Positions 1,227 to 28,772 are shown, counted from the stretch's first letter. The stretch is 64,000 nt of DNA from Chitinophagales bacterium (GCA_046329515.1 JAXLUM010000002.1:1039113-1103112), one strand, 5' to 3'. The notes: generated from the letters alone by a model not told the origin. Made by a program: numbers and translations.

Positions 1227-1227
1227 G

Positions 1228-2622
1228 CTATTTGAATTTTACCGAGCCGAACGCCAGCGGTAAGTAAAAACGAACAGTGTTTTTCAAAAAACACAGATTC
1301 TTAAATAATGGCAAGTACCCAACTAAGGTGCGCGGCGAAAAATAAAACTTGAAATAAGCTTTACGGTAAATACGATCCAATTGCGCTCGGCTAATATTGC
1401 CCGGAACATAGACAGGTAACTCCACCTCGCTGCGCATGTATTGTTGCCAAACGTCCGACGAAACTTTACCTTCCTGCACTGCTATTTTAAAAACCTCAAC
1501 ATCCGGCAAAGGAATCATTCGCGTAAAAAGAATGTTGAAGGGCCGCAACTTCATAGCTAGGTTTATAGTCGCCTCCATATCCTGTAAGGTTTCGCCGGGG
1601 TGGCCAAAAATGAAATTGGCCATAGTTTTAATTCCCAACTCGCGGCATAGATCAAACACCTCTTTATAGCGATGATTACTTATTTTTTTGCCCGTTAACG
1701 AGCGTACCTTTTCTGAACCACTCTCCACTCCAAAAGTTATTTTACTGCATCCAGCAGCCTTCATTTGTTTCAGTAATTCCGCATCTACTTTATCGGCACG
1801 CGTTTCGCAGCCCCACTCAAAGTAAAGGCCTTCGGCTTTAATAGCAGCGCACAATTCAAGTATGTGTCGCTTATTAACGGTAAAGGTGAGGTCCATAAAT
1901 TCCACCCATCTTACACCTAAATCTTTTACCAAAAAGCGAAGGCGGGCCATAATGTTTTCGATACTTAAATATCTGTAGTTCATTTGAAAGCCTGAGGCAC
2001 AAAAGTTACACTTATAGGGGCACCCCCTAGTAGTAAATAGCATCATGTAACGACTACTAGTACTGGCAGAGTAATACTTTCCAATGGGTAACAAATCGAA
2101 GGCTGGAATAGGCAGCAAGTTAATGTCACGAATGAAGGCGGGCTCATTTATGATTAGTTTTCCCTTCACATTAATAACTAAACCCTCTAAATCCGAAAGC
2201 ACTTCCTTTCCGGCTTTGATATGTTGGAGCAATCGTGTGAAAGAAAAATCGGCATCACCTCTAAAGCCGTAATCAGCATTTAAATGAGAGACTGCCTTAG
2301 GGTCGGCATTCACATAGTATCCTTCTAAAACAATTTTACTTGATGAAATTTCTTTAATAAATTGTATCAACTTATAAGCGTCAGGCAAGGTGGAAGGGAA
2401 AACGCTTATACAAACCACCGCTGGCCGATGTTGCTGAACCATTCGGGCAATTGTGGCATTATCCGTACCTTCTGCAGCGGGCTCAATAATTTTAACCATT
2501 AAACCTGCTGCGCGGGAAACTGCGGCCCATTCAGCAAGCTTTACATATGGCGAAACGCCCACAAGGTCGCGAGGATTAATAAAAAGGCAGTCTAATTGCT
2601 GCATATCAAAATTCATTAACAA
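1228..2622 (-). CDS. B12-binding (class B) radical SAM enzyme
   Basis: CPYKCNFC (CxxxCxxC 4Fe-4S/SAM motif) preceded by an N-terminal Rossmann-like region of about 150 aa, as in cobalamin-binding domains. An alternative ATG at 2604 would sit 1 nt after the upstream stop. Confidence 0.8.
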   Translation of the reverse strand: MLMNFDMQQLDCLFINPRDLVGVSPYVKLAEWAAVSRAAGLMVKIIEPAAEGTDNATIARMVQQHRPAVVCISVFPSTLPDAYKLIQFIKEISSSKIVLEGYYVNADPKAVSHLNADYGFRGDADFSFTRLLQHIKAGKEVLSDLEGLVINVKGKLIINEPAFIRDINLLPIPAFDLLPIGKYYSASTSSRYMMLFTTRGCPYKCNFCASGFQMNYRYLSIENIMARLRFLVKDLGVRWVEFMDLTFTVNKRHILELCAAIKAEGLYFEWGCETRADKVDAELLKQMKAAGCSKITFGVESGSEKVRSLTGKKISNHRYKEVFDLCRELGIKTMANFIFGHPGETLQDMEATINLAMKLRPFNILFTRMIPLPDVEVFKIAVQEGKVSSDVWQQYMRSEVELPVYVPGNISRAQLDRIYRKAYFKFYFSPRTLVGYLPLFKNLCFLKNTVRFYLPLAFGSVKFK

Positions 2623-3346
2623 TAATACTTCCGTCCAAAAGTGAGCGCATTAAACTCATTGTATCGTGCCCGTACGTTCTATTCATGCGCAAGAACAATT
2701 TAATCAATTTTAAGTTGCTGTATTTACTTTTATGGACTGCTGTCGAGCTAACTTTATAAAAAAGAGGTTCTTTCCCGCAGGCTTTTATCAATTCTATATC
2801 CAAATGTTCGGGAAGATAAAGCCTGTACCTTGTTGCCTGCCATAAACCCGACTTTATCAAACGGAAAGAAGAGCCTGAAGCCGCAAGCCTTCGGCCCGTA
2901 GTTCTTTGAATAAGGCGGTGAACTGCGCGGCTGCCTAATCTTCTCAAAGTCCCGTAGGCGGGCTTTTCGAAGCTGCCATAGGACAAAGAAACATGCTTGC
3001 CTGATTCAAAAAACGGAGCAATGAAAGAAGGTGGGGGGTTAAAATCATCATCTATGGTTAACAGGTATTGGCCCCTTGCCTTTTGCAGACCGACGATAGT
3101 GGCTGCATATTGACCCTTGTTGCCGACGAGATTTAAACACCGGAATGATCCGCCAGAGTTAGCATGCATTTCCGCTAAAAGCGGCCAGGTATTATCAACC
3201 GAGGCGTCATTGACAAGAATGAGTTCTGCCCCTTCGGGGATCGTTTTAAGTGAAGCAATGGCTTCTTTTACCCAATGCTGAATACGGTTACCTGCATTAT
3301 AAACTGGCACCACAACACTTAATACCGGGTTAACATTTAGGCTCAT
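2606..3346 (-). CDS. Family 2 glycosyltransferase
   Basis: VVVPVYNAG ... LVNDASVDNT ... TIDDD motifs. The likely start is the ATG at 3346, which overlaps the upstream TAA by 1 nt (TAATG). Confidence 0.8.
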   Translation of the reverse strand: MSLNVNPVLSVVVPVYNAGNRIQHWVKEAIASLKTIPEGAELILVNDASVDNTWPLLAEMHANSGGSFRCLNLVGNKGQYAATIVGLQKARGQYLLTIDDDFNPPPSFIAPFFESGKHVSLSYGSFEKPAYGTLRRLGSRAVHRLIQRTTGRRLAASGSSFRLIKSGLWQATRYRLYLPEHLDIELIKACGKEPLFYKVSSTAVHKSKYSNLKLIKLFLRMNRTYGHDTMSLMRSLLDGSIIVNEF

Positions 3347-4398
3347 TAAATTTCCAATAGGGGGGTACAACAAAGTTTGTCTACGGGGATAATTGCCGAG
3401 GCAGCCGAAAGCCCTACGCCAAAACCTGCCAAAAGCAGGGTACCCTGTAAATCCGACAGATTTGACCGCAAAGCTGTTATCATGGTTAATGGTATGGATG
3501 CAGAGCTGGTGTTGCCAAAATTAGTAAGCGAGTAGGGAAACTTTTCTTCGGGTATTTTGATTTTTTTACGAAGCGATTCGCAGATAATGCGATTCGCCTG
3601 ATGAAAAACAAAATAGTCTATTGCATCAGTAGGCAAGCTGGCAAAGGTCAAAAGGGACTCTATGTTTTTAACAACACTGCGAAGCGAGAATTCCAAAACC
3701 TTTTGCCCGTTCATATGCGCATGAAGCGAGGTCCTTCTTATTCCTTTTGCCTGACTTTCTTCTTCTAACGAAGATGTTGAGGCAGGCTTACGCGCCCCGC
3801 CCTCCGGTATTATAATAGCATCATAACCATCACCAAATGTTTCAAGGTTAAAGTAAACGCTTCCTGCCGAAGATGAGGCTTCTATTGCTGTGGCAGTACC
3901 AGCATCCCCAATAAGAGGGTAAGTAGATTTGTCGCTATAAGAAACAATGTGCGATGTTTCTCCACAAAGTAACAAGGCCTTTTGCCAACCATACAGTTGA
4001 AGGTATGCCTGAATAGCACTTAAACCATAAACAAAGCCCGAACAACCAAGGTGCAGATCAAATGCTGCACATGAATTCGAAAGCCCTAGCTGTTCTTGTA
4101 TGGCAGCAGCGCCAAAAGGTACAAGATAATCTGGCGTTTGGGTAACAAAAATCAGTAATTCAATTTCTGAAAATGACCAATCCAAATCTTTTACTAGTCT
4201 TTTTGCCGCAATAACACACATATCAGAAGCAGTTAGTCCTAGTGGCGCTTTGCGCAGTGATATTACTCCTACATGCTTTTGGAAATCCTTTCTTTCTGCT
4301 TCTGACGAAAAAGGGTACATAGTTGTATCAAACACTTGGGAAGGTACGGCGGCTGCCGCACCGATAATCTGTATTCCCTTTCCGCGCGCCAAAGGCAT
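3346..4398 (-). CDS. 3-oxoacyl-ACP synthase III (FabH/KASIII-like)
   Basis: Cys-His-Asn triad context: HLGCSGFVYGL, FHQANRII, FGNTSSASIP. TAATG overlap with the ACP gene. Confidence 0.85.
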   Translation of the reverse strand: MPLARGKGIQIIGAAAAVPSQVFDTTMYPFSSEAERKDFQKHVGVISLRKAPLGLTASDMCVIAAKRLVKDLDWSFSEIELLIFVTQTPDYLVPFGAAAIQEQLGLSNSCAAFDLHLGCSGFVYGLSAIQAYLQLYGWQKALLLCGETSHIVSYSDKSTYPLIGDAGTATAIEASSSAGSVYFNLETFGDGYDAIIIPEGGARKPASTSSLEEESQAKGIRRTSLHAHMNGQKVLEFSLRSVVKNIESLLTFASLPTDAIDYFVFHQANRIICESLRKKIKIPEEKFPYSLTNFGNTSSASIPLTMITALRSNLSDLQGTLLLAGFGVGLSAASAIIPVDKLCCTPLLEI

Positions 4399-4634
4399 TA
4401 GTCTGAAATTTTATGGTTAATAAGCGCTGTCAGATCGGCAATGGTTTCAGCCGTTTTCATCTCTTCCGGCGATATAAACACGCCAAACTCAAATTCAATC
4501 ATGGTAGTTACCACTACCGCGTTTATAGAGTTCCAGTTTAGCTTGTCCCGAAACTTTGAATCTGTTCTCAAAGAGTTTTTAGGTAAATCGTCAAACTCTA
4601 GTTCAATTTTTTCTATTAATTGCTCGCTATTCAT
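4398..4634 (-). CDS. Acyl carrier protein
   Basis: 78 aa and acidic, four-helix ACP size. The LNWNSINAV motif sits where the DSL phosphopantetheine serine is expected. Sandwiched between the adenylating enzyme and KASIII. Confidence 0.7.
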   Translation of the reverse strand: MNSEQLIEKIELEFDDLPKNSLRTDSKFRDKLNWNSINAVVVTTMIEFEFGVFISPEEMKTAETIADLTALINHKISD

Positions 4635-4635
4635 A

Positions 4636-6126
4636 TCATTCTTTTATGTCTAATCTTTCAGACTCCTTTAACCGCTTCAATAACTCCTCGCGTTTCATCT
4701 TATAGGAAATGGTAAGCGGTATTGAGTCTCTAAAAGGAAAAATGTAAATGCGCTCTATTTTTTCCGCAGCCTGTAAATTTTTATTACATTTAATTACCCA
4801 AGCTGCGGCCTCCTGTTTTTTAGATTCATCTACATTGTTTAACCATAATAAGGCGCTTAACTTTTGCTCCTCATCGCAACAAACAATAGCGCTATTTACC
4901 TCATTACATTCCATTAGTTTATGTTCAATAAGCTCAGGCAAGATATATAAGCCGTGGGGCCCTTTTAGGATGTTTTTTTTTCTGCCGCATATGGTCAGGT
5001 ACCCTTCAGAGTCTAAAGAAACAATATCGCCTGTTCTAAGATAACCATCTTGTGTGAGTAACTCGGTTGTTGCCGGCTCATTATTTTTATATCCTGTTGT
5101 GTTATTTGGAGCCTTGCATAGCAATTCGCCGTCTGCCTCAATCCGGATGTTTACTTCTTTGGCAACTTGGCCAACAGTACCTGTTTTTTTTGTACCGTAG
5201 TCGTTAAAACTAATTAGGGAAGCTGTTTCTGTTAACCCGTAAACCTCGTATATTATAATTCCCTTTTCCTCAAAGAAAGCACTAGTTGAAGGCGCTAGGG
5301 ATGCACCACCACATATAATAGCCTTTAAAAAACTCGGAAAAATCCCTGTCTCCAAAACCTGGTTCTGAATTTTACGCAATAGAAAGGGTGCCACTGCCAT
5401 GACATCTGGCTTGTAGAAGAGCAGAGATTCCAACTCATTTTGTAAAGGGCTTGGATAACAAATGGTGATACCATTTGCTTTGTAACTGTAATTCAATTTT
5501 CGTTCTCCACTAAAGGAAACGGGCAACAAACTTAGTGCTTTATTGCAATCTTGGAAAAAGCGGGCTTTGGAAAATACGTTAATAGCACTCAGCCAGTTAT
5601 TTCTGCTAAGAATGACACCCTTGGAAACACCCGCGCTACCAGATGTATATATTATTGTTTGTGTGCTTTCCCCTGGTAGTGTCGGCAACCTAAAGCTTTT
5701 CGTTAAAAAAAAAGAAGACTGATATAGGCTATTTAGACCATGTGTACTATGGATAAGAAACATCTCTGACTTAATAGCCGCACTCGTTACTATTTTGCCC
5801 ACTATTCGATAAACGAATTCGTAACCTATAAGAATTAGCTGTGGTTTGTTGTCAGAAATTACTATTCGCATCAAGTCCGCCTCTGCCAGAGGAGGTAAGG
5901 AAACATGCACACTTCCGGACCAATAGCACGCCGCATCAATGATATCCCAATCCGGCCCGTTGGGCAAAATAGTAAGAATGCAGGACACTTTCCTTTCCAT
6001 AAACCCTGCAGCCAAGGCCTGAGCATAAAAACGAAACTCATCGTAATGCATAGACTGTGGTTCTGCGTTACGGAAAAAACGCAGCATAGCACTTTGTCCA
6101 TATTCATTAGCGTAAAGCGTGTTCAT
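4636..6126 (-). CDS. AMP-dependent synthetase/ligase (fatty acyl-AMP or acyl-ACP ligase-like)
   Basis: Adenylation motifs IIYTSGSAGVSKGV, EVYGLTET, LRTGDIV and GRKKNILK. Confidence 0.85.
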   Translation of the reverse strand: MNTLYANEYGQSAMLRFFRNAEPQSMHYDEFRFYAQALAAGFMERKVSCILTILPNGPDWDIIDAACYWSGSVHVSLPPLAEADLMRIVISDNKPQLILIGYEFVYRIVGKIVTSAAIKSEMFLIHSTHGLNSLYQSSFFLTKSFRLPTLPGESTQTIIYTSGSAGVSKGVILSRNNWLSAINVFSKARFFQDCNKALSLLPVSFSGERKLNYSYKANGITICYPSPLQNELESLLFYKPDVMAVAPFLLRKIQNQVLETGIFPSFLKAIICGGASLAPSTSAFFEEKGIIIYEVYGLTETASLISFNDYGTKKTGTVGQVAKEVNIRIEADGELLCKAPNNTTGYKNNEPATTELLTQDGYLRTGDIVSLDSEGYLTICGRKKNILKGPHGLYILPELIEHKLMECNEVNSAIVCCDEEQKLSALLWLNNVDESKKQEAAAWVIKCNKNLQAAEKIERIYIFPFRDSIPLTISYKMKREELLKRLKESERLDIKE

Positions 6127-6128
6127 GT

Positions 6129-7856
6129 TTAATTACTATTTAAGTCAGGATGTCTTTTAATAATATAGTAACTATATGCTTGGTTTCCCCACAAAAATGG
6201 ATTTTTGTAAGAGCGCAGAACACTTTTATTATAAACAGGACAAAAGTTAATGGTGTCATTGTAAAAAAAAACATTCCAGCGGTGTAAAAAGGAAATATTG
6301 TAGGTGTTGTAGATAAATACAACCTGATCTGATTTTTCATTAAGACAATTCAAAATTTTATTTGAGTTAGCAGATCCGCATTTATTGGTCCAGTAATCTA
6401 TGTTGGACTTAAAATGCCTGGATATATAATGAAATGGAAGGACGTATTGATTTTCTTTATTTAGATTTGGAACACAAAATGGGCCTGTGTCTACAAAATA
6501 GGCAGTATATAGGTCAAATAAAATTATTTTATGATTAAAAGAATTTAGCTCCGCTATAAATTTTTGTTTCTGAATCTTGTCTGCCATAAGAAGTTCGCTC
6601 ATCTTTATACAAGCCTTTGCGCGATAAGCGGAGAAACAACATAGGGGAATGACCAATACTACTATATAGATGGACTTCCACTTTTTATTGCTCCAGGCGG
6701 CAAACGTATAAAGATTAAAAACTGTAAGAATAAGTAAATAAGGCCCCAATAAACGATCTTCCATCTTTGCAATTAAAGCAATCAGTAATATTAAAACCCC
6801 AGCTAGTAACCATAAAACTGATAATAATACTGTTTTACGCAAGCCCAACAAAATCGGGCCGAATGCCACAATAAGTACTAGATTTATCATGAAAAGAACA
6901 ATCTCCTTATATAACCAGTTAAAGCATGATTGTCTTCCTTGGTACCTGTCCGCGAATTGAATGAGGTTAAGTGTTTTAAAGTATAGAAACTGTTTGACTT
7001 CAAAATTGTGGGGTTGGGCGTAAAGGTTATGCAGCCAATCTTCTGTTAAAATATCGGCATCAAAATGATTCCAGGTAGTGATGGCTTCAAGCTTCAATTG
7101 TGTAGCAGGATCCTTAATGTCCGAAGAAATTGGCAAAATATAGGCATCTTGTATAAGAGATTCATAAAAAGAGAACTTTCCGAAGTCAATAGTTTCAGAT
7201 GTAGGTAAGGCCCATTTTAACACATTGGACATAAATAGCGGGAGGATTACTACGGGTAATAACCTCTGGATAATAGCCTTTTTGTTTTGGAACCATAACG
7301 CTACCAAAGTAAGAGAGGAAGCTAACAATAGAGTTATGACAGCGATTTCCAGACGGGTTAATAGGCCTAGTAATATACATAAACCTATATAAAGCGCAAA
7401 TGCGGGACCCAGTCTAAACACCATGAGCAAAGTAGCACTGCCAGTGAGCAGACACGCAGCAGTAGTGAAGGTGTTACGCATTATAAACTCCTGCATAAAA
7501 CCACAGAACACCAGAACTCCTGGAACCAGTTGCCACAGGCGCTTTGGTTTTAAAAAAACTAAAAAATTATATGTTACATAAACAAGATTGCAATAGGACA
7601 TTGCTAATAATAAGAAAAGGAAAAAACCATACCAAGATACACCGGGGACTGTCTTATAAAGGCCAATTAGAATAAAAGACAATCCTATAAAATAATCGGG
7701 ATTTAGGACATGTTTAGGCTCGTAGATGCCTGCCATCAAATTAGCCATTAAAGTATCGTCCAGCCACCCAACATACAAACCGGTGCGTAATGAGAAGATA
7801 AGCGAAAACAATATACACCCCCCCAAAAAATAGACGTACCTGAATTTTATTGGCAT
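6129..7856 (-). CDS. Large polytopic membrane protein with C-terminal soluble domain (GT-C-like architecture, function unknown)
   Basis: About 400 aa of repeated hydrophobic helices followed by a Cys/Asn-rich soluble tail of about 170 aa. AT-rich codon usage. Confidence 0.4.
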   Translation of the reverse strand: MPIKFRYVYFLGGCILFSLIFSLRTGLYVGWLDDTLMANLMAGIYEPKHVLNPDYFIGLSFILIGLYKTVPGVSWYGFFLFLLLAMSYCNLVYVTYNFLVFLKPKRLWQLVPGVLVFCGFMQEFIMRNTFTTAACLLTGSATLLMVFRLGPAFALYIGLCILLGLLTRLEIAVITLLLASSLTLVALWFQNKKAIIQRLLPVVILPLFMSNVLKWALPTSETIDFGKFSFYESLIQDAYILPISSDIKDPATQLKLEAITTWNHFDADILTEDWLHNLYAQPHNFEVKQFLYFKTLNLIQFADRYQGRQSCFNWLYKEIVLFMINLVLIVAFGPILLGLRKTVLLSVLWLLAGVLILLIALIAKMEDRLLGPYLLILTVFNLYTFAAWSNKKWKSIYIVVLVIPLCCFSAYRAKACIKMSELLMADKIQKQKFIAELNSFNHKIILFDLYTAYFVDTGPFCVPNLNKENQYVLPFHYISRHFKSNIDYWTNKCGSANSNKILNCLNEKSDQVVFIYNTYNISFLHRWNVFFYNDTINFCPVYNKSVLRSYKNPFLWGNQAYSYYIIKRHPDLNSN

Positions 7857-7875: not shown

Positions 7876-9204
7876 TCATGACAAAATGAAACTAGGCAAG
7901 CTGTGATTTGCCCCTCTCAGAAATCTTTTTAACTCAGCTTGCTGAAGTTTAAAACTAAAGATAACAAGAACAAGGGGATAGATGAAATTGAGAAAATAGA
8001 CAAGCGGATGAATATGGCCGCTCATAGATATGCCATCTCTTGTTTGAAGGATATTGTAAACTATCCAGGGTTGACGGCCAGCCTCCGAAACTACGCCGCC
8101 TATAATAGATACTAATTGGACCAGTATATATGAGCCTATTGATAAGGTAAAAACGCGCCTATAATTACCACGCCTCACCAAAACGCAGGACCACGCCCAA
8201 AGTCCTAGCAATACTACCCAGCCCAATAGCATTGCCCTAAAGCAATAAAACACTACTGCCACATTAGGTTTGTCTTCAGATTTAAAGCTGTTTAGGGGTC
8301 TCAGTGGAGTAAAGCTTGCATTCATTTTCTGTTCAATAAAGGCAGGCAGGTGAATACCCAACGTAATCGTCAATGTTTCATCAGTTGTAGCCATTAGATA
8401 ATAATGAGGAGGTTCCGAAGACGAATAATAACCTTCAATAGCACTGGCCTTGGCAGGCTGGTATTGGGCTATAATATCAAACTGTATATGCCCAAGTATT
8501 GGCTGTAAAAATAAGCAAACGAATATAAGGCCGAGGTATGTTCTGATCAGAGTCGATGCGCCTTGAGCACGCACCTCTTTTTGCCCCACCCTTGCCAGTA
8601 CCGTACAATAAAAAGCAAAACCGGCTATCAGCCCACCTGTATACAGATGAGCAAGTTTGGGAATACAGGAGGCATTTAAAATAAAATTCCTTAGGCTGAC
8701 AATATGAACAGAGAGTCCAGCTGGAGTATTCGTAAATACAGTGCCGGCCGGTGTATGCATCCAAGCGTTTACAATAAGAGTCCATGCGCTAAAGCAAATT
8801 GAGAAAATGAAAAGCACTAACACAATAAATATGCTAAGGCCTAGGGGCAATACTGGTTCGCGTAAGAGAAAGAACAACAAAAAAGCCGTTCCGAAAAAGG
8901 AAACAAGGGCAATACGGCCAAACGGGTGGTTAATTAAGGGCCCCAAAACATGCTCAGCTGCCGACCAGTTTTCGCCCAATTGTAAATCAAGTACGATTCC
9001 GGAGAAGGTTGCAATGCAGAATTGAATAGTGTAAAGTTTTACAAAAAGAGAGAATAAACCATGGTGGCCTTCGCCGGGTCTGCGGCGAGTGAAGATGGCA
9101 AGCACCAATAATCCTATTGCGCTGCCCGGTAACGCAGCAGTTAATGCTTGATGAATGGCGAGGCTGCTTCCGAACAGAGAACGAGCCAAAATCTCCTTAT
9201 CCAC
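7876..9204 (-). CDS. Cytochrome bd ubiquinol oxidase subunit I (CydA)-like protein, orphan (no cydB)
   Basis: GRQPWIVY signature, N-terminal His (LAIHQAL), KLAHLYTGG His context, and the QPAKASAIEGYY Q-loop Lys/Glu motif. 442 aa, so a short Q-loop. Confidence 0.7.
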   Translation of the reverse strand: MDKEILARSLFGSSLAIHQALTAALPGSAIGLLVLAIFTRRRPGEGHHGLFSLFVKLYTIQFCIATFSGIVLDLQLGENWSAAEHVLGPLINHPFGRIALVSFFGTAFLLFFLLREPVLPLGLSIFIVLVLFIFSICFSAWTLIVNAWMHTPAGTVFTNTPAGLSVHIVSLRNFILNASCIPKLAHLYTGGLIAGFAFYCTVLARVGQKEVRAQGASTLIRTYLGLIFVCLFLQPILGHIQFDIIAQYQPAKASAIEGYYSSSEPPHYYLMATTDETLTITLGIHLPAFIEQKMNASFTPLRPLNSFKSEDKPNVAVVFYCFRAMLLGWVVLLGLWAWSCVLVRRGNYRRVFTLSIGSYILVQLVSIIGGVVSEAGRQPWIVYNILQTRDGISMSGHIHPLVYFLNFIYPLVLVIFSFKLQQAELKRFLRGANHSLPSFILS

Positions 9205-9421
9205 TTTGTTTATTGAATCTATCGTAAACTATATATACGGCCACAAAAAAAACCGCGCACAACCCCAGTTTCACTATGCGTATGACACCCTCGTTTTGAT
9301 GCTGTAGTATAAAGCGCAATAGAGAAAAAACAAGTGCCAATAAAACGGTGATGCGTAATACAGCATCCGCCAAATTCCTTTCGGCAACCTCACTAAATTC
9401 CCTCAGTAACTTTTTAAGCAT
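9197..9421 (-). CDS. Small two-helix membrane protein
   Basis: The internal ATG at 9421 lies 1 nt after the upstream stop. Two hydrophobic helices. Its end overlaps the CydA-like start by 8 nt. Confidence 0.4.
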   Translation of the reverse strand: MLKKLLREFSEVAERNLADAVLRITVLLALVFSLLRFILQHQNEGVIRIVKLGLCAVFFVAVYIVYDRFNKQSG

Positions 9422-9422
9422 T

Positions 9423-10427
9423 TCAATTGGGTCCCCGTCCTCCGGTGCTCTTGCGCACACCATCGCTATCTTTTATCAGCTTAGCAGAGGGTATGTAATC
9501 TTGGCCGGAGACAAAAACTACGCCTCCCACCATCAATAATGTCAGCTGAAAAAAGAAGTGCAGCAAGGGTACCTGGAGGGCAGCTTCTGTGTTTAGGTTC
9601 ATAAATTTTAAATAAAGGAAAAACGAAGTTTCCATTAAACCAAGCCCCTCGTAACTTATAGGCAAACTGGCACTTAAATAGAAAAAGGGAATGCCCACGA
9701 GAAACTGCCCGGCATTATAAAAATCGAACCCTAAACCACTCAGGGCCAACAAAATAAACACGGTTAGCAGCCCTCCGAGAAAAGACGAAACAGATGACAC
9801 CAATAAGATGCGGCCATTTGAGCGGGCGGATGTTACTTCCTCTAAAACCACATCGAAAGAGGGGATTAGCTTTTGTAGTGGCCGGCGAAAAACTCTCGCT
9901 AAAAATCTTAAAATGCTCTTGTAAAAAGGCAGCGTAAGCAAAAGGAGAAAAAAGAAAAAAAGATAAGCATATAGCGGATGATAATAGTTGGTTACACCTC
10001 CAAGCAGCAAAAGAAAAAATCCCAAAGCAAGAGCAGCCCCTAACCCTAATGTTGCACCAATACGGTCCAGCAAAAGTCCATTAACTGCAACCGCTGCAGG
10101 AATTTCGTGTTTACGCAAAAACAAAAAACGGAAAAGGTCCTCGGAGCCGGGGATAGGTAAAAACAGCATTAAAAACCATGTTCGGTAAGCCATTATTATG
10201 GCGCTTCGCAGCCGGAGTTTATACCCCTGCAAGCGAGCGCAGTAGTACAATCGCAATCCGAGCAAAATATTTTTAAGATGAAACAGCACGAATGCCAATG
10301 CAATAAGGGAAAACCTTATTTGTATTTGTGCCTGGTTTATTTTGCGCAACTGAAAATGATAAATAAGCCAAAGCACAAGCCCAAACAGCAATAGTTTGAT
10401 AAGTATTGAGGAGCATCGGGCATTCAT
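9423..10427 (-). CDS. Polytopic membrane protein, UPF0104 / LPG-synthase-TM (flippase-like) candidate
   Basis: About 8 TM helices at about 330 aa. Size, topology and a GT2-neighbour context are typical of this family. No diagnostic motif was recognised. Confidence 0.4.
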   Translation of the reverse strand: MNARCSSILIKLLLFGLVLWLIYHFQLRKINQAQIQIRFSLIALAFVLFHLKNILLGLRLYYCARLQGYKLRLRSAIIMAYRTWFLMLFLPIPGSEDLFRFLFLRKHEIPAAVAVNGLLLDRIGATLGLGAALALGFFLLLLGGVTNYYHPLYAYLFFFFLLLLTLPFYKSILRFLARVFRRPLQKLIPSFDVVLEEVTSARSNGRILLVSSVSSFLGGLLTVFILLALSGLGFDFYNAGQFLVGIPFFYLSASLPISYEGLGLMETSFFLYLKFMNLNTEAALQVPLLHFFFQLTLLMVGGVVFVSGQDYIPSAKLIKDSDGVRKSTGGRGPN

Positions 10428-10459
10428 AGTCGTACAATAACCTTTCTTTCTAAGTAGCC

Positions 10460-11536
10460 CTATCTCACCTTATTGTGTATCCTTGGTAAGGTTGCCAGAT
10501 AGGCGTAAATAGATAAAACTTCTTTATCGGTGAGTAAATAAAATGGCTGCATGGGGTCGCGGACCGTTTTGCCATCAGGCTTTATTCCGTTTTTAACCGT
10601 CCGTAAAAATTCCGTTTCCGACCATTTCCCTATTCCGGTTTCCTCATCAAAGGTTATGTTCGATGAATATATTTCTCCATGTTCACTATTTGTATGCTTT
10701 GCGCCGCCTGCAAAAAAGTTGTCCGACCTCTCCGGAAAATCATTGTGGTAGTTGCCTACTAAATCATTGGAGTGACACTCGTAACAGGAAAACTTTCGCG
10801 GTGCCAGGTATCTGCCAAATTCTATTGGATTGTTTGTGTCCGGCGGCAAAATAGCTGCCGTTGCATAAGCGTAAGGCCTTAACAGTGTGCGCGCAAAAAT
10901 TTTAACCACAGGGTTAATAGGCTCAGGGGCCACAGGTTTATTTACTGCCCGCACCAATGAATCATCAGAGCGCAGAAAAGCTATAATTGAACCAAGATCG
11001 TCATTACTAAGGCCGGGATACTTAGGCATATCGTAAACATAATAGCCATCGGGCTTTATGCCTGTGCGTAGAAAAAATGCCAGTTGCCCTGTGGACCACC
11101 GCCCTATTCCTGTTGCGGAATCCGCCGTAATATTAGAGGCAAAATTATCCCCTATACTTCCGGGGTTGGCCACATCTCCGCCAGCCAGGGTATTTGTTTG
11201 TGCATCATAATGGCATTTAATACACATCATGAGAACTATCCGGCGGCCTTCTTTTAGATGTGCCGAATCGTTACTGTAAGTAAACACCGGCGATAAAGCC
11301 TCATATTTTGGCAAAGGCAAAATTGCCAAAACAACTAAAACAAGCAGCAACACTGCCACTAAACCCAAAGCCGAAAAGAGAATGATCCTGAACCGGAATT
11401 TCAAAATGCAATGCGTAATATAGCTGCTAAATAAGTGAATAAAATCAGCAGATCCCTGCCTTTGGGCCGGGCCCCAAAAAATGAATTTTCTGCATGCAAA
11501 ATAGGTTTCATGGCTTTGTGGCGCTGGTGGTTTCAA
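10460..11536 (-). CDS. Membrane-anchored diheme c-type cytochrome
   Basis: Two CxxCH motifs (CIKCH, CYECH) and one N-terminal TM helix (IILFSALGLVAVLLLVLVVLAIL). No in-frame ATG lies upstream of the helix. The track start is a TTG, so the start is uncertain. Confidence 0.75.
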   Translation of the reverse strand: MKPPAPQSHETYFACRKFIFWGPAQRQGSADFIHLFSSYITHCILKFRFRIILFSALGLVAVLLLVLVVLAILPLPKYEALSPVFTYSNDSAHLKEGRRIVLMMCIKCHYDAQTNTLAGGDVANPGSIGDNFASNITADSATGIGRWSTGQLAFFLRTGIKPDGYYVYDMPKYPGLSNDDLGSIIAFLRSDDSLVRAVNKPVAPEPINPVVKIFARTLLRPYAYATAAILPPDTNNPIEFGRYLAPRKFSCYECHSNDLVGNYHNDFPERSDNFFAGGAKHTNSEHGEIYSSNITFDEETGIGKWSETEFLRTVKNGIKPDGKTVRDPMQPFYLLTDKEVLSIYAYLATLPRIHNKVR

Positions 11537-13146
11537 TGCTTATGCATGTTGTCGTGCACATAAGCTGCGGGTTTTATTATGAAACCGGCTCTATGACCTA
11601 CCTGAAAAATGTGGTAGCCGGCACCTTTACCAGTACTCCGCAGATAATACCCAGGGCATTTGGCGCCCATACCGGTTTTTCAGATTTATACATATGGCTT
11701 TATCAGCATTGCCCCGGATGGGAATGGCATGACATATTTATGCTGGGTTTTTCAGTTGCTGGCCTTGCTCTTTTAATAATGGCTCTTTACGCCGCCATCA
11801 GGCACTCGCTTAGTGAGCGTAAGAGCAACACAACAATTTTTGTATGGGCACTAATTGCCAGCGTAGCGTTTTATGCTGATAATTTATTGCAAACGGAGCT
11901 TACCCGCTCCTCTATAACCATTGCATTCAGCGCATTCTTCCTGCTGGTTTTTGAGGCCAGAAAATGGTGGCATTACTTGCTGCTGAATGTTATTCTGGTA
12001 TCGGCAACCCTTATCAGGACAGAAGTTTTTGGGTTTTCAGTTATGCTTATCCTTCCGGCTGTTTTAGCGGGAGCAGGACTAAAACGTTTGGTTTACTGCC
12101 TAACGCCTACGTTGATTTTATATGTGGTTTTCCTGGTAGCAATTAATGCGGGACTAACTGCCGAGGAACGCGCTTACCTCGCCTTCAGGCCCTACCAGTT
12201 TATTTTACTGGATTACGAGATCAAAAAAGAAGTTCCGTTTGAAAGCCCACAGGATTCTATGGCAATTTTACTTGCTAAAAACGGCTTTTGGTGCGATGAA
12301 GGAGTAATCGATGAAAAACTATTCCGAAAGTATTATTTACCACTGGATAAAATCCCCTCCAACTTTTTCAACTATCTTAAAGCAGTTGATTGGAAGCCGC
12401 ACACGCTTATTAAAAAAGCCATGCGTGTAAGTACCCGCTATTATATATTGCTGCTTTTGCCCCTGTTGCTGTTATCACTTCAAACCATAGCTAAAAGCAG
12501 GGGGCCGTGGCTTTCGCTTCCGCTCGTACTCTATTACGCAGTTCTACTGGCAGGGTTATTGGTTTTTATTAAAATTGAAGACAGGGTTCTTTATCCTGCG
12601 CTAATCGCCTTCCTGGTTTTATCGCTACGTATTTGCAGTGCCTGTTTTTTACAACTGTATCTGCTTGTAGCCATAGTGGTGTGCTGTATTATTGCCGGCT
12701 TTGGGTATAAGCAAATGCAGGAAACCCGTGACATTGATGATTATATGCGCAGGCTTGAAAAAACTCTTGAAAAACAGCCGGCAGGCAGCGTGGCGGTGTA
12801 CGATTTAAAAGCTGTTACTGATTACGGACTAAAACTTAGTTTGAAGCGCCAATCGCCTGCTATAAAAAAGGCAAGTATAGACAATGGCTTATTGCATCTG
12901 AACACACAACTGCAAAAGGATAATCTGCAAACTTTTGGCAACGATAAGTGCGCGGACATGATAGCCGGAACCGCCACCGACAGTAGTTTTGTTTGGGTTA
13001 GTTGCGAGGGACGCATGAAACTGATTTTAGCCTATATGCGCATTGTGCATGGACTATCAATGCACTATGTGGTGTTGGACAATTTTGGCGCGGTAAAGAA
13101 TGAGAATGTTTATCCCCGCATTATGCGCTTATATTTGGATAATTAA
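11494..13146 (+). CDS. Large polytopic membrane protein with C-terminal soluble domain (GT-C-like architecture)
   Basis: About 11 hydrophobic helices followed by a soluble tail of about 140 aa. The start is uncertain, with alternatives at 11536, 11542 and 11593. The 11494 start would overlap the divergent cytochrome c ORF. Confidence 0.4.
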   Translation: MQNRFHGFVALVVSMLMHVVVHISCGFYYETGSMTYLKNVVAGTFTSTPQIIPRAFGAHTGFSDLYIWLYQHCPGWEWHDIFMLGFSVAGLALLIMALYAAIRHSLSERKSNTTIFVWALIASVAFYADNLLQTELTRSSITIAFSAFFLLVFEARKWWHYLLLNVILVSATLIRTEVFGFSVMLILPAVLAGAGLKRLVYCLTPTLILYVVFLVAINAGLTAEERAYLAFRPYQFILLDYEIKKEVPFESPQDSMAILLAKNGFWCDEGVIDEKLFRKYYLPLDKIPSNFFNYLKAVDWKPHTLIKKAMRVSTRYYILLLLPLLLLSLQTIAKSRGPWLSLPLVLYYAVLLAGLLVFIKIEDRVLYPALIAFLVLSLRICSACFLQLYLLVAIVVCCIIAGFGYKQMQETRDIDDYMRRLEKTLEKQPAGSVAVYDLKAVTDYGLKLSLKRQSPAIKKASIDNGLLHLNTQLQKDNLQTFGNDKCADMIAGTATDSSFVWVSCEGRMKLILAYMRIVHGLSMHYVVLDNFGAVKNENVYPRIMRLYLDN

Positions 13147-13159
13147 GCACGCGGCACCC

Positions 13160-14818
13160 ATGCGTTTCACTGTACCCGAGAAATATAAGCTGCCGGCACT
13201 TTTTATTGCATTCCTTCTGATTTACGGGAGCTACTTCTGCTATTTTGGTATTCATGGGTTACTTCCCGGTCAAATCGATGTGTGGTATAACCTGGGAGTG
13301 TTACGCGAATATGCCAACCACATCAACCATCTGTTTTTTAATACCCCGGTTGGTATGGCCAATTATCCTGAAGGGCACATTTACCTGAATGGAGAGCCCT
13401 CCTTTTTAAGCGGCATGTTGTTTTGGGTGCTGTCTTTACTAATGAACGACCTGTGGGCTTATCTCGCTATGTGCGCTTTATTCTTTACGCTTAACAGTTT
13501 CTTTCTCTCGTTGTATTTAAGGCGTTTGTTGAATAGCCATTTATCAATAACTTTTATAAGCGGCTTAGCTTTTAGTTTAAGCGCGTTTAACCTGGGCCTG
13601 CTCGATAATTTTGTCTACGGCATTTTCTTCCCTTTTTTCGGGGCTTTGTTGTTACTGGAAAAATGGTGCACCGACAGAAAAACGGCTCAACTGCTGATAG
13701 CAGTGCTATTGCTCAATCTTGAAATCTACTTTTCGGTTTATAATTTTTTTATGGGCTATTTAGTGCTGGCGGTGTGGCTGGTGGTTTATTTCCCTCGCGA
13801 GCGTAAAACATTTGCTGTGCTGGCGCTGTCATTTATTTCGCTGCCGCTTATTTTTCCCTATGTATATCTTTTCATTCTTCATCCAAGTATCCTCCCGGAA
13901 TACCGTGATTTTTTTACCCCCCAAATAATCGCCGGTTTTAGCTTTAAGGGAGCGGACCTTCTGCGCTCTTTTCAAAGCAACCCCATCTATGGTGGCATGG
14001 TAAACGGTGGTGATCGATTACAGAACTACTGGCACATGGGCAACATAGGCCTTGTTTCATTTGCATTTGCTTTAGCAGGCTGGGCACTTGCCGATAAAAA
14101 ATTAAAGTGGTTAACCGGGTCTCTTATAATAACGGGTATGCTGTTTTGTATCGGGCCCTATTGGGGCAGTAGCCAGGTAAAAGCTCCCTTTTATTATTTG
14201 CACCAATGGTTACCCTTGCTGGCAGGCTTTAAAATGATATTCAAGTTTTATTACCTGGTGTTGCTTTGCCTGGTGATATGCCTTACGGTTTTCGTAAACC
14301 GCGTGGTAAAATTGATGCACCATAAATTCAGGGTACCTGTATCGTTGCTATGCGCAATAGTGTTTTTATCAGAGAACCTGCCTCTTAATTTTTCGGAATA
14401 CGTATTACCCTACAGCCAGCTTCAGCTAAATAAAGCGTTAAGAGAAAATGAAAGCGGAAGCATATTGATTTTGCCCTCTTTTGCTCCCGTAAGTAGTAAT
14501 ACCGAGTGTTTTGTTAAAGGCAGAGGCTATGAGTACCGCTATTACTACCTGGCATATCACTCGCACATTAACCTTTTAAATGGTTCTAGTTCCTTTGTGC
14601 CCGCCTCCCGAAAAACTGTAGATAGCCTTCTTTATCAATTACCTATGAATGAATCCCTTTTCATCCTTCGTAAACAATTCGGATTAACGGCAATTGTATT
14701 CGATAAAAGCAGCACCTTAAGTTGCAGCCCCTACTCTCTTGAGGAATTAAAAACCTTGCTTAACACAACCTATGAAGACAGCGCTTTTGCGTTATTTGAT
14801 TTAACGGCTCAACCGTAA
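13160..14818 (+). CDS. Large polytopic membrane protein with C-terminal soluble domain (YfhO/GT-C-like architecture)
   Basis: Many TM helices plus a soluble C-terminus. The ATG at 13160 avoids the 47-nt overlap that the track start at 13100 creates. Confidence 0.4.
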   Translation: MRFTVPEKYKLPALFIAFLLIYGSYFCYFGIHGLLPGQIDVWYNLGVLREYANHINHLFFNTPVGMANYPEGHIYLNGEPSFLSGMLFWVLSLLMNDLWAYLAMCALFFTLNSFFLSLYLRRLLNSHLSITFISGLAFSLSAFNLGLLDNFVYGIFFPFFGALLLLEKWCTDRKTAQLLIAVLLLNLEIYFSVYNFFMGYLVLAVWLVVYFPRERKTFAVLALSFISLPLIFPYVYLFILHPSILPEYRDFFTPQIIAGFSFKGADLLRSFQSNPIYGGMVNGGDRLQNYWHMGNIGLVSFAFALAGWALADKKLKWLTGSLIITGMLFCIGPYWGSSQVKAPFYYLHQWLPLLAGFKMIFKFYYLVLLCLVICLTVFVNRVVKLMHHKFRVPVSLLCAIVFLSENLPLNFSEYVLPYSQLQLNKALRENESGSILILPSFAPVSSNTECFVKGRGYEYRYYYLAYHSHINLLNGSSSFVPASRKTVDSLLYQLPMNESLFILRKQFGLTAIVFDKSSTLSCSPYSLEELKTLLNTTYEDSAFALFDLTAQP

Positions 14819-14865
14819 TTGCTAATTTTACAAAACACAAAAATTACGATACATTCATATCAACT

Positions 14866-16467
14866 ATGAATATCACTTTTGCTGCTATAGGATCTGAGCA
14901 GTTGGCTATCAGCTTGCTTTCCGGTATCGCTAAACGCGAAGGCCATGCAGTAAGCCTCGTGTATACTCCTTCACTTTTTCATGACCGCTGGAACCTGGAA
15001 GTCCCTCTTCTGAATCGCTTTTTTGATGAAACAGACGAGGTAATTCAACAAATAGTTAAGTCTGAGCCTGATGTTCTGGCCTTTTCTGTTCTAACGGCCA
15101 CATATCAATGGGCCTTGCACATTGCCACCGAGGTAAAAAAGAAAAGGCCGCGCGTTAAAACCATTTTCGGTGGAGTGCATATCTCGGCAGTTCCCGACAG
15201 GGTAATAAAAAAAGAAGTAGTGGACTACCTTGTTGTTGGCGAGGGCGAAGAAGCATTTCCGGCAATATTAAGCGCCATACAGAATAAGAGTTTCACCGAT
15301 GCCATAGCCAACACATGGTTTAAAGCCGAGGATGGCCGGATTATTAAAGGCCCCCAAAAAGGGTTTTACCAGGAGCTGGACACCCTGCCGGCCTTTGACA
15401 AGATACTTTGGGAAAATGACATTAAGGTTACGGATAAGTATATGACGATGGCATCGCGCGGCTGCCCGTACCGTTGTTCGTTTTGCTTTAATAATTTTTT
15501 TGCCCGCCTGCCCGAAGAAAAGTCCGGCAAGTATGTTCGGTTCAGAAGCCCCGACCATATGCTGGCGGAGTTAAGTTTTGCCAAAGAAAGATATGGCAAC
15601 ATACGCCTGATAGATTTTCAGGATGATGTTTTTACAGCGGATAAAAAGTGGTTAAAAGAGTTTTTACCACGCTATAAAAATGAAATAGACATACCATTTC
15701 AGTGCCTTACGCACCCTAAATACCTGGATGAAGAAATTGCCGCCCTGCTGAGTGATGCAGGTTGCAAGTGGATACAGATGGGAGTGCAGAGCATGGACGA
15801 AGACTTTAAGAAAAACAACCTGCAACGTTTTGAACGCAGCGACCAGATTGCTGAAGCCTGCCGCATTATGGCTAAGTACGGCATTAAAGCCAAACTGGAC
15901 CATATGTTCGGCCTGCCCGAGGAGCCGGTAAGCGCACAGGAAAAAGCGCTTGCGCTTTATAAGCAGTATGTGCCCGAACGCATACAAACCTTTTGGACCT
16001 GTTACCTGCCCGGCACCGATTTATTGAAAGAAGGTCTGGCTAAAGGAGTAGTTACTCCGGAGGCTGCCGAGCGTTTATATGAGGGTATAGACTTTTTCTT
16101 TTACCGTAACGAAGACAACATCAAAAATCCGGAGCTGGTTAAAACCTACAAGCGTTACGAGTTTATTTTTAAAATATTGCCTATCGTGCCGGGCTTTATT
16201 GGTCAGCGCCTGCGCCCGGAAAATATTAAATGGATCCCTCTGTTTGTTATGGGGCCGGTAGCCTATACCGCCGATGTTATTACGGGCTTTATGTTCGGCA
16301 ATCCGGATTTTGCCACCTACGCACGCCATTATATGCTTCATATCAGGCGGCACATTGCAGGTTGGTTTACCTCTACCAAATCGGACGCTACTAAAAACGT
16401 TCAGAAAAAAGTTAAGCTGCCGGTGTTTATTCCTAAACGCAATATGCAGTTGAATAAAACATTTTAG
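14866..16467 (+). CDS. B12-binding (class B) radical SAM enzyme
   Basis: CPYRCSFC at nt 15463-15486. The N-terminal region (DVLAFSVLTATY ... IFGGVHISA) resembles a cobalamin-binding Rossmann domain. Confidence 0.8.
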   Translation: MNITFAAIGSEQLAISLLSGIAKREGHAVSLVYTPSLFHDRWNLEVPLLNRFFDETDEVIQQIVKSEPDVLAFSVLTATYQWALHIATEVKKKRPRVKTIFGGVHISAVPDRVIKKEVVDYLVVGEGEEAFPAILSAIQNKSFTDAIANTWFKAEDGRIIKGPQKGFYQELDTLPAFDKILWENDIKVTDKYMTMASRGCPYRCSFCFNNFFARLPEEKSGKYVRFRSPDHMLAELSFAKERYGNIRLIDFQDDVFTADKKWLKEFLPRYKNEIDIPFQCLTHPKYLDEEIAALLSDAGCKWIQMGVQSMDEDFKKNNLQRFERSDQIAEACRIMAKYGIKAKLDHMFGLPEEPVSAQEKALALYKQYVPERIQTFWTCYLPGTDLLKEGLAKGVVTPEAAERLYEGIDFFFYRNEDNIKNPELVKTYKRYEFIFKILPIVPGFIGQRLRPENIKWIPLFVMGPVAYTADVITGFMFGNPDFATYARHYMLHIRRHIAGWFTSTKSDATKNVQKKVKLPVFIPKRNMQLNKTF

Positions 16468-17339
16468 GCCTGCCCGAAAAGGCGTAACAGCTTTTGTTTA
16501 AATCCCTCCGGCTCAGGTTCCAGCTGAAGGTCTTTCATGCTTATCTGGCCGAAGGAATAATCCCACTCCTGCACCGGTTGCATATTTACAGGTAACTTAC
16601 CATCGTTGTTTTTCATCAGGTAGTCCAGTTCAATCTGAAAGCCCTGTATTTTTTTCCGGTTTTCATTCCAAAAATAAACCATCATAGGGGCACCTGCCGA
16701 AGTTAACGCACAGGAGGTCGCAATGCGGGGCTCGGTAGAATGATTTTCGCGTGAGCAATGAACTGCCCGGTGGTCATACAACAATGCATCGCCGGCATTC
16801 AGCAACAATTCGGTGCACTCTTTCCAGAAATATTCACGCAAGTCCACGGTTTGATCCGGAATGTTAGGCCCGCGGAAAATATTACGAATGTTGTGGCTGC
16901 CTTTTAAAACCTGCAAAGGTCCGTTTTCCTTAGTAAGCTTAACAAGCGGTATCCATAAATTAAACGAGCGGAATTCGTCTTCGTTTACAATGCCATAATC
17001 AATATGCGGTTGAGAAGCCCCTTTGCCCAAAGGCGGTTTAATTACAAACGAGCCCCCGAAAATCTGGTAGTTAGCGAACACCTCGCTGCAGGGGGGGGTA
17101 TATACCTCTATGATCTTGGCAATCGTGCGCACTTTATAGTCCTCATCGCGGGTATGCCACACCGAATTAATAATATGCTCCGCATGAAACTCGGGCTGAT
17201 TGTTGCGGTTATATTCAAGTAACTCAGCCACGCGTTCAGGCGAAAGAAATTTTTTCAATACCAGATAGCCATCGTCCAGCAACTGTTTTTCCAGTCGCTT
17301 GTCCTTCATTATTGGCGGAAACTGTTTTTTAACCTTCAT
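16464..17339 (-). CDS. PhyH-family Fe(II)/2-oxoglutarate dioxygenase (paralog A)
   Basis: PHIDYG (HxD) ... NGPLQVLKGSH ... AVHCS ... PRIA. N-terminal DDGYLVLKKFL motif. Confidence 0.8.
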   Translation of the reverse strand: MKVKKQFPPIMKDKRLEKQLLDDGYLVLKKFLSPERVAELLEYNRNNQPEFHAEHIINSVWHTRDEDYKVRTIAKIIEVYTPPCSEVFANYQIFGGSFVIKPPLGKGASQPHIDYGIVNEDEFRSFNLWIPLVKLTKENGPLQVLKGSHNIRNIFRGPNIPDQTVDLREYFWKECTELLLNAGDALLYDHRAVHCSRENHSTEPRIATSCALTSAGAPMMVYFWNENRKKIQGFQIELDYLMKNNDGKLPVNMQPVQEWDYSFGQISMKDLQLEPEPEGFKQKLLRLFGQA

Positions 17340-20100: not shown

Positions 20101-20136
20101 AATACAATATTGCAGGCAGCCACTGAAGAAATAAGC

Positions 20137-20907: not shown

Positions 20908-20912
20908 GGCTG

Positions 20913-23139: not shown

Positions 23140-23148
23140 GGCGGCAAA

Positions 23149-25864: not shown

Positions 25865-25873
25865 AGCTGCGGG

Positions 25874-27838: not shown

Positions 27839-27849
27839 ACACCCTTATT

Positions 27850-28767: not shown

Positions 28768-28772
28768 ACATT

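Follow-up and report, generated by a model that had tools for sequence, protein, structure and literature searches.

Why does a homologue of cytochrome bd subunit I lie in a biosynthetic gene cluster? Cytochrome bd is usually seen as an enzyme that reduces oxygen in respiration, and it counts as a drug target. The 64,000-nt stretch of Chitinophagales bacterium DNA analyzed here (GCA_046329515.1 JAXLUM010000002.1:1039113-1103112; the window, to which all coordinates refer) contains an open reading frame (ORF) of 442 amino acids (aa) that an earlier note singled out as an orphan CydA-like haem protein with hallmark His, Q-loop and GRQPW features. The CydA-like protein is unusual in four respects. 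It keeps the quinol half of cytochrome bd, it has discarded the proton channel and the CydB subunit, it has acquired a small subunit and an associated cytochrome c, and it is encoded in a biosynthetic cluster. A cytochrome bd superfamily member with this combination appears to be new, and literature searches returned no description of such a CydA-like/cytochrome c module.

The CydA-like protein

The CydA-like gene starts with GTG and is located as follows:

7876..9204, minus strand: CydA-like protein, 442 aa (PF01654, residue mapping, AF2/Foldseek)

The encoded protein matches PF01654 over its full length (E 3.6e-58, 197.6 bits with a cut-off of 26.2; residues 6-418 on profile positions 1-408 of 418). 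An AlphaFold2 (AF2) model built on 42 sequences displays the nine-helix CydA fold with pLDDT 90.6 and pTM 0.91, and Foldseek superimposes it on solved CydA chains with TM scores of 0.83-0.85 (TMq 0.85 to 7nkz_A and 0.84 to 5doq_A). Aligned with Escherichia coli CydA from NC_000913.3, which provides the residue numbering, the protein retains His18 (= His19), His186, the Q-loop motif QPAKASAIE (Lys252/Glu257), FRAM (Met393) and SEAGRQPW (Glu445/Arg448). The window ORF is a full-length CydA homologue and represents a diverged cytochrome bd subunit I, and the features named in the earlier note fall into register with their canonical counterparts.

Key residues were compared between 274 canonical CydA sequences and ten members of the clade to which the window protein belongs:

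Glu99: 96% of canonical CydA, 0/10 clade members
Glu107: 93% of canonical CydA, 0/10 clade members
Ser140: 91% of canonical CydA, 0/10 clade members
His126: 80% of canonical CydA, 0/10 clade members
His19 (97% of canonical CydA), His186 (100%), Glu257 (96%), Glu445 (96%) and Arg448 (99%): 10/10 clade members each
Met393: 99% of canonical CydA, 9/10 clade members
Lys252: 99% of canonical CydA, 8/10 clade members

Judged by these residues, the quinol-oxidation half is intact, with Lys252/Glu257 in the Q-loop and the predicted haem b558 ligands His186/Met393, and the column of the active-site haem ligand His19 is invariant in all ten members. In the window protein, none of the proton-channel residues is left: Ile, Thr, Ala, Ser and Phe stand in for Glu99, Glu107, Ser108, His126 and Ser140, respectively. 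Of the four E. coli ligand positions listed in the earlier note, three (His19, His186 and Met393) are kept and the fourth, Glu99, has disappeared with the rest of the channel; the axial haem ligands, the loss of which would have counted against the note, are retained. The Glu99 region carries a clade motif, [NHG]-[HY]-P-x-G-R-[IST]-A, in 9/10 members (N92-H-P-F-G-R97-I-A in the window protein; absent from the L138 protein). The motif Arg falls on E. coli position 98, where 0 of 270 canonical sequences have Arg. The Q-loop is short compared with that of E. coli bd, and CxxCH motifs are missing from the window protein and from the five further clade proteins examined.

Trp441 (E. coli numbering) is kept in 267/274 canonical CydA and in 9/10 tabulated clade proteins. 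It is replaced in the window protein (residue 370; Val or Gly by alignment), and Gly is found in the closest relative, fragment P0124. A collection of 5.8 billion proteins holds the cytochrome c from the same genome but lacks the full-length CydA-like protein, of which only a 172-aa C-terminal fragment (P0121, 100% identity) is present. The cydA-like gene is probably miscalled or unannotated in the public record.

Loss of CydB in the CydA-like clade

Profile scores and alignments place the CydA-like proteins in a small, discrete clade of Bacteroidota. The clade is visible through an exhaustive HMMER search only; word-indexed protein searching and single-protein scanning of GTDB species genomes retrieved nothing but canonical CydA at 23-31% identity. 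Among 1.84 billion representatives, HMMER found nine closer relatives, comprising one 100% identical fragment, two fragments at 65% and 54% identity and six full-length proteins at 29-36% identity (E 1e-42 to 1e-69 for these six), below which the scores fall to canonical CydA at ~1e-31. Clade proteins were sampled from ten contigs (L081-L087, L092/L093 and L138), which encode eight distinct proteins and originate from metagenomes and from Flavobacteriales and Bacteroidota metagenome-assembled genomes (MAGs); the metagenome scan contributed only two of the loci. The clade hidden Markov model (HMM) score exceeds the canonical HMM score by +243 to +437 for L081-L087 and L092/L093, and the difference is -27 or lower in all other loci of that comparison; L138, scored separately, encodes a divergent clade member at +13. 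Clade members are 27-40% identical to the window protein, which is at most 30% identical to canonical CydA.

In a neighbour-joining tree, the clade groups with four more channel-less proteins (P0132, P0154, P0166 and P0191), and a sister group (P0199, P0190, P0172, P0200 and others) keeps Glu99 and lacks Glu107. The four channel-less proteins are 413-416 aa long and have His/Lys-rich motifs, such as HLGHKSA, in the region from which Glu99/Glu107 are missing. In the nearest canonical sequences, the two Glu residues are separated by seven others, the qOR1 signature.

Does a CydB subunit accompany the CydA-like protein? An HMM built from 59 canonical CydB loci, which detects CydB in 115 of the other fetched loci, gave only noise on all six-frame ORFs of the window, and Pfam scans of the large window ORFs contained no CydB. 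In hhalign comparisons with CydB, the UPF0104 protein, the small protein and three large membrane proteins of the window each reached a probability of 1% or less. The absence of a CydB-like ORF from the window, as reported in the earlier note, is thereby confirmed by three methods. The CydB HMM also found no CydB in any of the ten clade-carrying contigs, so that no canonical cydB stands in conserved synteny with the cydA-like gene. A second CydA paralogue was likewise absent, given that the canonical and clade HMMs, run with filters off, match one ORF per locus. The 575-aa gene in the "cydB position" (6129-7856) was considered as a disguised CydB and rejected; its product is a paralogue of a 550-aa window protein and exhibits no CydB signal. 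It has no relative in the PDB and is not kept beside the CydA-like gene in other loci.

The CydA ORFs of all fetched loci were classified by channel glutamates and by CydB:

Both Glu present: CydB adjacent, 96; no CydB seen, 17
Glu lost: CydB adjacent, 2 (both archaeal); no CydB seen, 11

An adjacent CydB is found for 96/113 canonical CydA ORFs, and the 17 without a nearby CydB match lie mostly at contig ends or in actinobacteria. Loss of the channel glutamates coincides with loss of CydB.

Partner genes of the CydA-like protein

In the window, the CydA-like gene is the last member of a four-gene unit, the other members of which are listed below:

9197..9421, minus strand: small two-helix membrane protein, 74 aa (sequence reading; orthologous ORFs)
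9423..10427, minus strand: UPF0104/LPG_synthase_TM membrane protein, 334 aa, flippase-like (PF03706)
10460..11404, minus strand: N-terminally anchored His/Met dihaem cytochrome c (PF13442 and PF00034; mechanical ORF to 11536)

The small ORF is translationally coupled to both of its neighbours. Its ATG at 9421 lies one base after the UPF0104 stop codon (TGA, 9425-9423), and its last 8 nt, TAA included, are shared with the start of the cydA-like gene (GTG). The coupling described in the earlier note is thus confirmed, with the correction that the small ORF lies upstream, not downstream, of the cydA-like gene. An overlapping ORF of 62-80 aa precedes the CydA-like gene in every locus in which the upstream region is present. 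We rejected the possibility that the small ORF is a CydB remnant (hhalign probability against CydB, 0.3%). The best, non-significant CydB-HMM matches in five loci are the small ORFs, but they align to different, non-overlapping parts of the profile. Because of this non-overlap and the hhalign result, these matches are regarded as hydrophobic noise.

The UPF0104 protein matches PF03706 at profile positions 1-300 of 302 (E 3.2e-20, 73.3 bits with a cut-off of 33.4) and has no NCBIfam equivalog. It is encoded in 8/8 compared loci, beside the cytochrome c gene, the CydA-like gene or both. A disguised CydB or haem protein was also considered and rejected for UPF0104, given its robust PF03706 match and an hhalign probability of 0.1% against CydB; the family has a single invariant His and no ligand pair.

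The cytochrome c matches PF13442 and PF00034. Its two CxxCH motifs and two Met residues (C61/C64/H65/M126 and C207/C210/H211/M285) are invariant in 36 family members, which suggests an electron carrier rather than a catalyst because the His/Met ligands never vary. The two CxxCH motifs and the membrane anchor noted earlier are thus joined by two Met ligands, Met126 and Met285. The start at 11536 assumed in the earlier note does not hold; TTG 11404 is the most likely start by sequence and yields a 314-aa protein that begins with MKFRFR and a transmembrane helix. The resulting length agrees with the 300-320 aa of the homologues, and 89 bp then separate the gene from its divergent neighbour at 11494, into which the mechanical ORF (358 aa, TTG 11536) extends. 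An identical cytochrome c is annotated in a Chitinophagales MAG (P0323, 284 aa), and that annotation cuts off the transmembrane anchor.

Among solved structures, the only sequence relatives of the cytochrome c are the trihaem subunits of Gluconobacter alcohol, fructose, aldehyde and glucose dehydrogenases (ADH, FDH, ALDH and GDH; phmmer E 4.6e-15 to 2.8e-13), and the same subunits are its only fold relatives (Foldseek E 7.7e-14 to 6e-11, TMq 0.56-0.66). The alignment covers trihaem haem domains 1-2 only (8gy2_B residues 38-266). Across loci, the cytochrome c is 39-57% identical, compared with 28-40% for the CydA-like protein. Distant cytochrome c relatives (~39% identity) also occur alone in unrelated contexts.

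A conserved core and an optional cassette

The four-gene unit recurs in the ten clade-carrying contigs in three gene orders, and UPF0104 and the cytochrome c accompany the CydA-like gene wherever the contig extends far enough. Related neighbourhoods repeatedly encode fatty-acyl-AMP ligase (FAAL), ACP, KASIII, GNAT, DegT, GT2, GT-C-like, B12 radical SAM, PhyH or Asp/Arg hydroxylase, WelO5-like and Wzt proteins, and some add UbiA, YdjC and FA_hydroxylase. By gene content, the surroundings are a conserved envelope-glycoconjugate/glycolipid cluster of Bacteroidota. The co-conservation with glycan genes anticipated in the earlier note is thus found for the cytochrome c, the small ORF, UPF0104 and the FAAL/ACP/KASIII/GNAT/DegT/GT2 set.

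The CydA-like gene itself is not a fixed part of this cluster. In three sister clusters (L089, L091 and L139), located through cytochrome c homologues and not through CydA, UPF0104 is followed directly by the cytochrome c, and no CydA-like gene lies within 10 kb. L138 (8549-12411) contains the small-ORF and CydA-like pair and L139 (7818-9756) lacks it, with synteny otherwise shared for UPF0104, the cytochrome c, the GT-C-like protein, FA_hydroxylase, a 318-aa protein and YdjC. Because these three clusters lack the pair, the small ORF and the CydA-like gene appear to be a gain/loss add-on to a constant core of UPF0104 and the cytochrome c. The CydA-like protein is accessory to the pathway and not part of its core.

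Which enzyme could use the cytochrome c? In five related loci, the gene next after the cytochrome c encodes an SGNH/GDSL-like protein of 345-395 aa:

L081, 6602-7309: SGNH/GDSL-like protein
L082, 12333-13520: SGNH/GDSL-like protein
L089, 10975-12009: SGNH/GDSL-like protein
L091, 10912-12024: SGNH/GDSL-like protein
L093, 12203-13327: SGNH/GDSL-like protein

No homologue of this protein was found in the window. FA_hydroxylase was rejected as a periplasmic acceptor, given that its His boxes lie in Lys/Arg-rich, and thus cytoplasmic, loops and that the window has no homologue. No pyrroloquinoline quinone (PQQ), FAD or molybdenum cofactor (Moco) catalytic subunit occurs among the called genes of the window cluster or of 12 related loci. 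In L085/L086, from a Flavobacteriales MAG, the small-ORF/CydA-like pair is directly preceded by a PAP2/VCPO_2nd gene (8319-9671), whose product resembles a vanadium chloroperoxidase or an acid phosphatase.

Gene content of the window

The four-gene unit opens an array of eleven co-directional minus-strand genes that spans 11404-561, adjacent genes being -28 to +32 nt apart, in agreement with the single operon proposed earlier. The array encodes, in order, the dihaem cytochrome c, UPF0104, the 74-aa protein, the CydA-like protein, a 575-aa polytopic protein, FAAL, ACP, KASIII, an ArnC-like GT2, a B12 radical SAM protein and a PseH-like GNAT. Consensus promoter and terminator scans of the locus were uninformative. 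The features beyond the four-gene unit are as follows:

561..7856, minus strand: 575-aa GT-C-like protein, FAAL, ACP, KASIII, ArnC-like GT2, B12 radical SAM and PseH-like GNAT (Pfam, NCBIfam)
11494..30859, no single strand: two GT-C-like proteins, B12 radical SAM, ten PhyH domains, WelO5-like protein, Wzt/Wzm, CMAS-type methyltransferase and DegT aminotransferase (Pfam)

Within 561..7856, the intergene gaps are -28 to +19 nt, and orthologues are present in related loci, as they are for the DegT, WelO5-like, Wzt and radical SAM genes. The ArnC-like assignment of the GT2 is its best NCBIfam match and lies below the cut-off. Pfam, NCBIfam and the PDB returned no match for three polytopic proteins of 550-575 aa each (6129-7856, minus strand; 11494-13146 and 13100-14818, plus strand). 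Two of them, with 575 and 550 aa (6129-7856 and 11494-13146), are distant paralogues with 21% identity over ~420 aa, and related loci encode similar polytopic proteins with weak PMT_2 or GT_STM0557_N matches. The three proteins are probably GT-C glycosyltransferases.

Ten PhyH domains (Fe/2-oxoglutarate oxygenases; 2OG) are distributed over eight adjacent genes (16464-20100 and 23149-28767, minus strand; 20110-20907, plus strand), two of which encode double-domain proteins of 606 and 654 aa, and the WelO5-like protein adjoins them. All ten PhyH domains have an HxD motif (HQD), and the WelO5-like protein has HxE (HCE). These motifs mark the proteins as predicted hydroxylases and not halogenases, and a halogenation theme suggested by the WelO5 match and the VCPO-like gene of L085 was rejected on the same grounds. 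The domain content implies a cluster product that would be very heavily hydroxylated. The 2OG oxygenases of the cluster have no signal peptides and do not need an external reductant.

Outside the cluster, the window encodes the haem A synthase CtaA (36388-37497, plus strand), which implies that the host would have an aa3-type oxidase. Two proteins with type IX secretion C-terminal domains (33798-36337), a caspase-domain protein (47265-48740, plus strand) and a 1491-aa alpha-2-macroglobulin (55912-60387, minus strand) were also found there.

Functional interpretation

What could a subunit I without CydB contribute to such a cluster? We propose, with a probability of about 0.45, that the CydA-like protein and the small ORF product form a non-electrogenic menaquinol:cytochrome c adaptor. 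A cytochrome bd derivative without CydB would no longer work as a proton-motive oxygen reductase and would wire the dihaem cytochrome c to the menaquinone pool. Menaquinol would be oxidized at the Q-loop, and its electrons would travel through haem b558, and possibly through the other two haems as well, to the periplasmic cytochrome c. The cytochrome c would in turn serve a periplasmic or outer-leaflet redox step on a flipped lipid-linked sugar or on the finished glycoconjugate. Electron flow from quinol to cytochrome c is favoured because of the low potential of menaquinone (about -74 mV) and the His/Met ligation of the cytochrome. Where the cassette is missing, reduction or oxidation of the cytochrome c presumably falls to the general respiratory chain, and the presence or absence of the cassette in the syntenic L138 and L139 fits a module whose job other components of the cell can do. 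The earlier note had suggested a quinol-linked periplasmic electron-transfer module dedicated to the pathway. The finding came through all three refuting conditions of the note, and anatomy and co-occurrence partly support the suggested function, with the qualification that the CydA-like gene is accessory and that the function is a proposal.

Several points weigh against the adaptor proposal. None of the loci yielded a periplasmic redox enzyme as a partner for the cytochrome c. The SGNH hydrolases encoded next to it have no redox function, and FA_hydroxylase has cytoplasmic His boxes and no homologue in the window. His19 and Glu445 are strictly conserved, which speaks for a di-haem site that still works and would be unexplained if haem b558 alone were needed. 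We infer the contact between the CydA-like protein and the cytochrome c from gene adjacency, menaquinone is taken as the host quinone from general knowledge of the Bacteroidota, and the CydB search of the source genome covered the 64-kb window.

The invariance of His19 and Glu445 in 10/10 clade members instead suits a non-electrogenic terminal oxidase, in which electrons from quinol, cytochrome c or both would reach O2 at the di-haem site with protons drawn from the periplasm. Such an oxidase could dispose of electrons from periplasmic glycoconjugate oxidation or lower the local O2 for the radical SAM enzymes of the cluster. The bd superfamily is defined by its di-haem O2 site, and its OR-C family is proposed to draw on haem c (10.1101/2021.01.16.426971); moreover, the proteins most similar to the cytochrome c take up electrons when sugars or alcohols are oxidized in the periplasm (PMC9171043), and the clusters mix O2-sensitive radical SAM enzymes with O2-dependent enzymes. 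However, the anatomy speaks against a respiratory oxidase, which the earlier note had also considered less likely. Neither proton route to the O2 site survives: the CydA channel is lost, and so is CydB in its entirety, the subunit that in E. coli additionally houses the O2 channel. Subfamilies without Glu99/Glu107 are classified as non-catalytic "b" partners (10.1101/2021.01.16.426971). The clusters also lack a dehydrogenase subunit to feed the cytochrome c, and we consider an oxidase unlikely. Quite improbable, by comparison, is a haem enzyme whose substrate would be a lipid-linked glycan intermediate. In solved structures, His19 and haem d are located where subunits I and II meet (10.1101/2021.01.16.426971), and loss of CydB would open the His19 haem pocket to the bilayer for oxygenase- or peroxidase-type chemistry. 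The clade residues His93 and Arg97, one helical turn apart, would bind phosphate or peroxide in place of the Glu99 region, and the quinol and the cytochrome c would supply electrons, while the flippase-like UPF0104 protein would hand over a polyprenyl-phosphate sugar. The clade motif in 9/10 members, with an Arg never found at that position in 270 canonical sequences, and the tight translational coupling to the UPF0104 gene are consistent with this chemistry. Nevertheless, the idea is speculative, the motif is absent from L138, and three clusters that work without the cassette argue against an essential tailoring step.

Could the CydA-like protein be an ordinary subunit I that pairs with a CydB encoded elsewhere, its cluster location being incidental? 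Sixty-four kb of the genome were examined, and CydB evolves fast and can escape detection, as with the 17 canonical CydA ORFs that have no CydB match nearby. However, the ten clade contigs never contain CydB and always contain the small ORF, UPF0104 and the cytochrome c where the contig allows. The channel is lost in all clade members, and 11 ORFs have neither channel nor CydB, compared with only two that have CydB without the channel; a distant CydB is thus very hard to credit. Equally hard to credit is a decaying relic or a purely structural membrane subunit without a redox role. Identity to canonical CydA is 30% or less, Trp441 is lost in the window protein, and some clusters dispense with the cassette. 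Decay is nonetheless at odds with intact reading frames, with the retention of all five haem ligands and the Q-site residues at 27-40% identity, with a confident AF2 model and with a conserved small partner ORF.

If menaquinol does deliver electrons to a periplasmic cytochrome c as the adaptor proposal holds, the CydA-like module would be a new kind of quinol:cytochrome c oxidoreductase beside bc1 and ACIII, and periplasmic tailoring steps on glycolipids or lipopolysaccharide could draw on the respiratory chain. The nearest known precedent is mycobacterial DprE1, which passes electrons to menaquinone. If the haem-enzyme alternative were true, it would provide the first non-respiratory, biosynthetic function in the cytochrome bd superfamily. 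In addition, the clade offers a way to approach the function of the qOR1 branch without a proton channel, which earlier phylogenomics had excluded.

Comparison with known systems

The CydA-like protein shares the subunit I fold (TM 0.73-0.85), the haem ligands and Lys252/Glu257/Arg448 with the CydAB(X) enzymes of the qOR1 type (E. coli bd-I and bd-II; 6rko and 7ose). It differs from them in the absence of CydB and of the proton channel, in its short Q-loop, in its cytochrome c neighbour and in its location in a biosynthetic cluster instead of a respiratory operon. Its partner has two helices, whereas CydX or CydH has one. Murali, Gennis and Hemp (2021, 10.1101/2021.01.16.426971) described a long branch inside qOR1 as "missing the proton channel" and filtered it out, with context, partner and function not given. 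The present clade likewise combines retained quinol-site residues with a missing proton channel and an affinity to qOR1, and it may be that branch or a related lineage.

OR-C resembles the CydA-like module in that a bd-type scaffold is associated with a c-type haem, which is taken to couple cytochrome c to the scaffold. However, OR-C has no quinol site, contains CxxCH within the CydA homologue, has a second CydA paralogue and mostly keeps Glu99/Glu107, whereas the CydA-like protein has a quinol site, no CxxCH and no paralogue, and is accompanied by a separate cytochrome c. The quinol site and the nine-helix model also differ from OR-N, which has no quinol site and 10-14 helices. The archaeal CydAA' enzymes (qOR4a/4b) are likewise bd enzymes without CydB, but they use a second CydA paralogue, which is absent here, as subunit II and keep the channel glutamates in subunit I.

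The cytochrome c resembles the trihaem subunits of acetic acid bacteria (ADH subunit II and FdhC; 8gy2_B, 7w2j_C and 8jej_C), which are periplasmic, membrane-bound and linked to the quinone pool; the Gluconobacter trihaem subunits reduce ubiquinone (PMC9171043). Unlike these subunits, it has two haems instead of three and an N-terminal transmembrane anchor instead of a C-terminal hydrophobic region. The quinone-reactive function may have passed to the CydA-like protein.

From the family names, we infer that the logic of the cluster resembles undecaprenyl-phosphate-sugar modification, with an aminotransferase, an N-acyltransferase, a GT2, a flippase-like protein and a GT-C. The Arn pathway, Gtr and the Francisella FlmF2/NaxD/FlmK system, which are three-component systems for undecaprenyl-phosphate-sugar modification, are alike in the DegT aminotransferase, the ArnC-like GT2, the flippase-like protein and the GT-C-like protein, and sister loci add a YdjC deacetylase. 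In contrast to those systems, which contain no cytochrome c or bd-type protein, the present cluster also adds FAAL/ACP/KASIII, B12 radical SAM and up to eleven 2OG-oxygenase domains.

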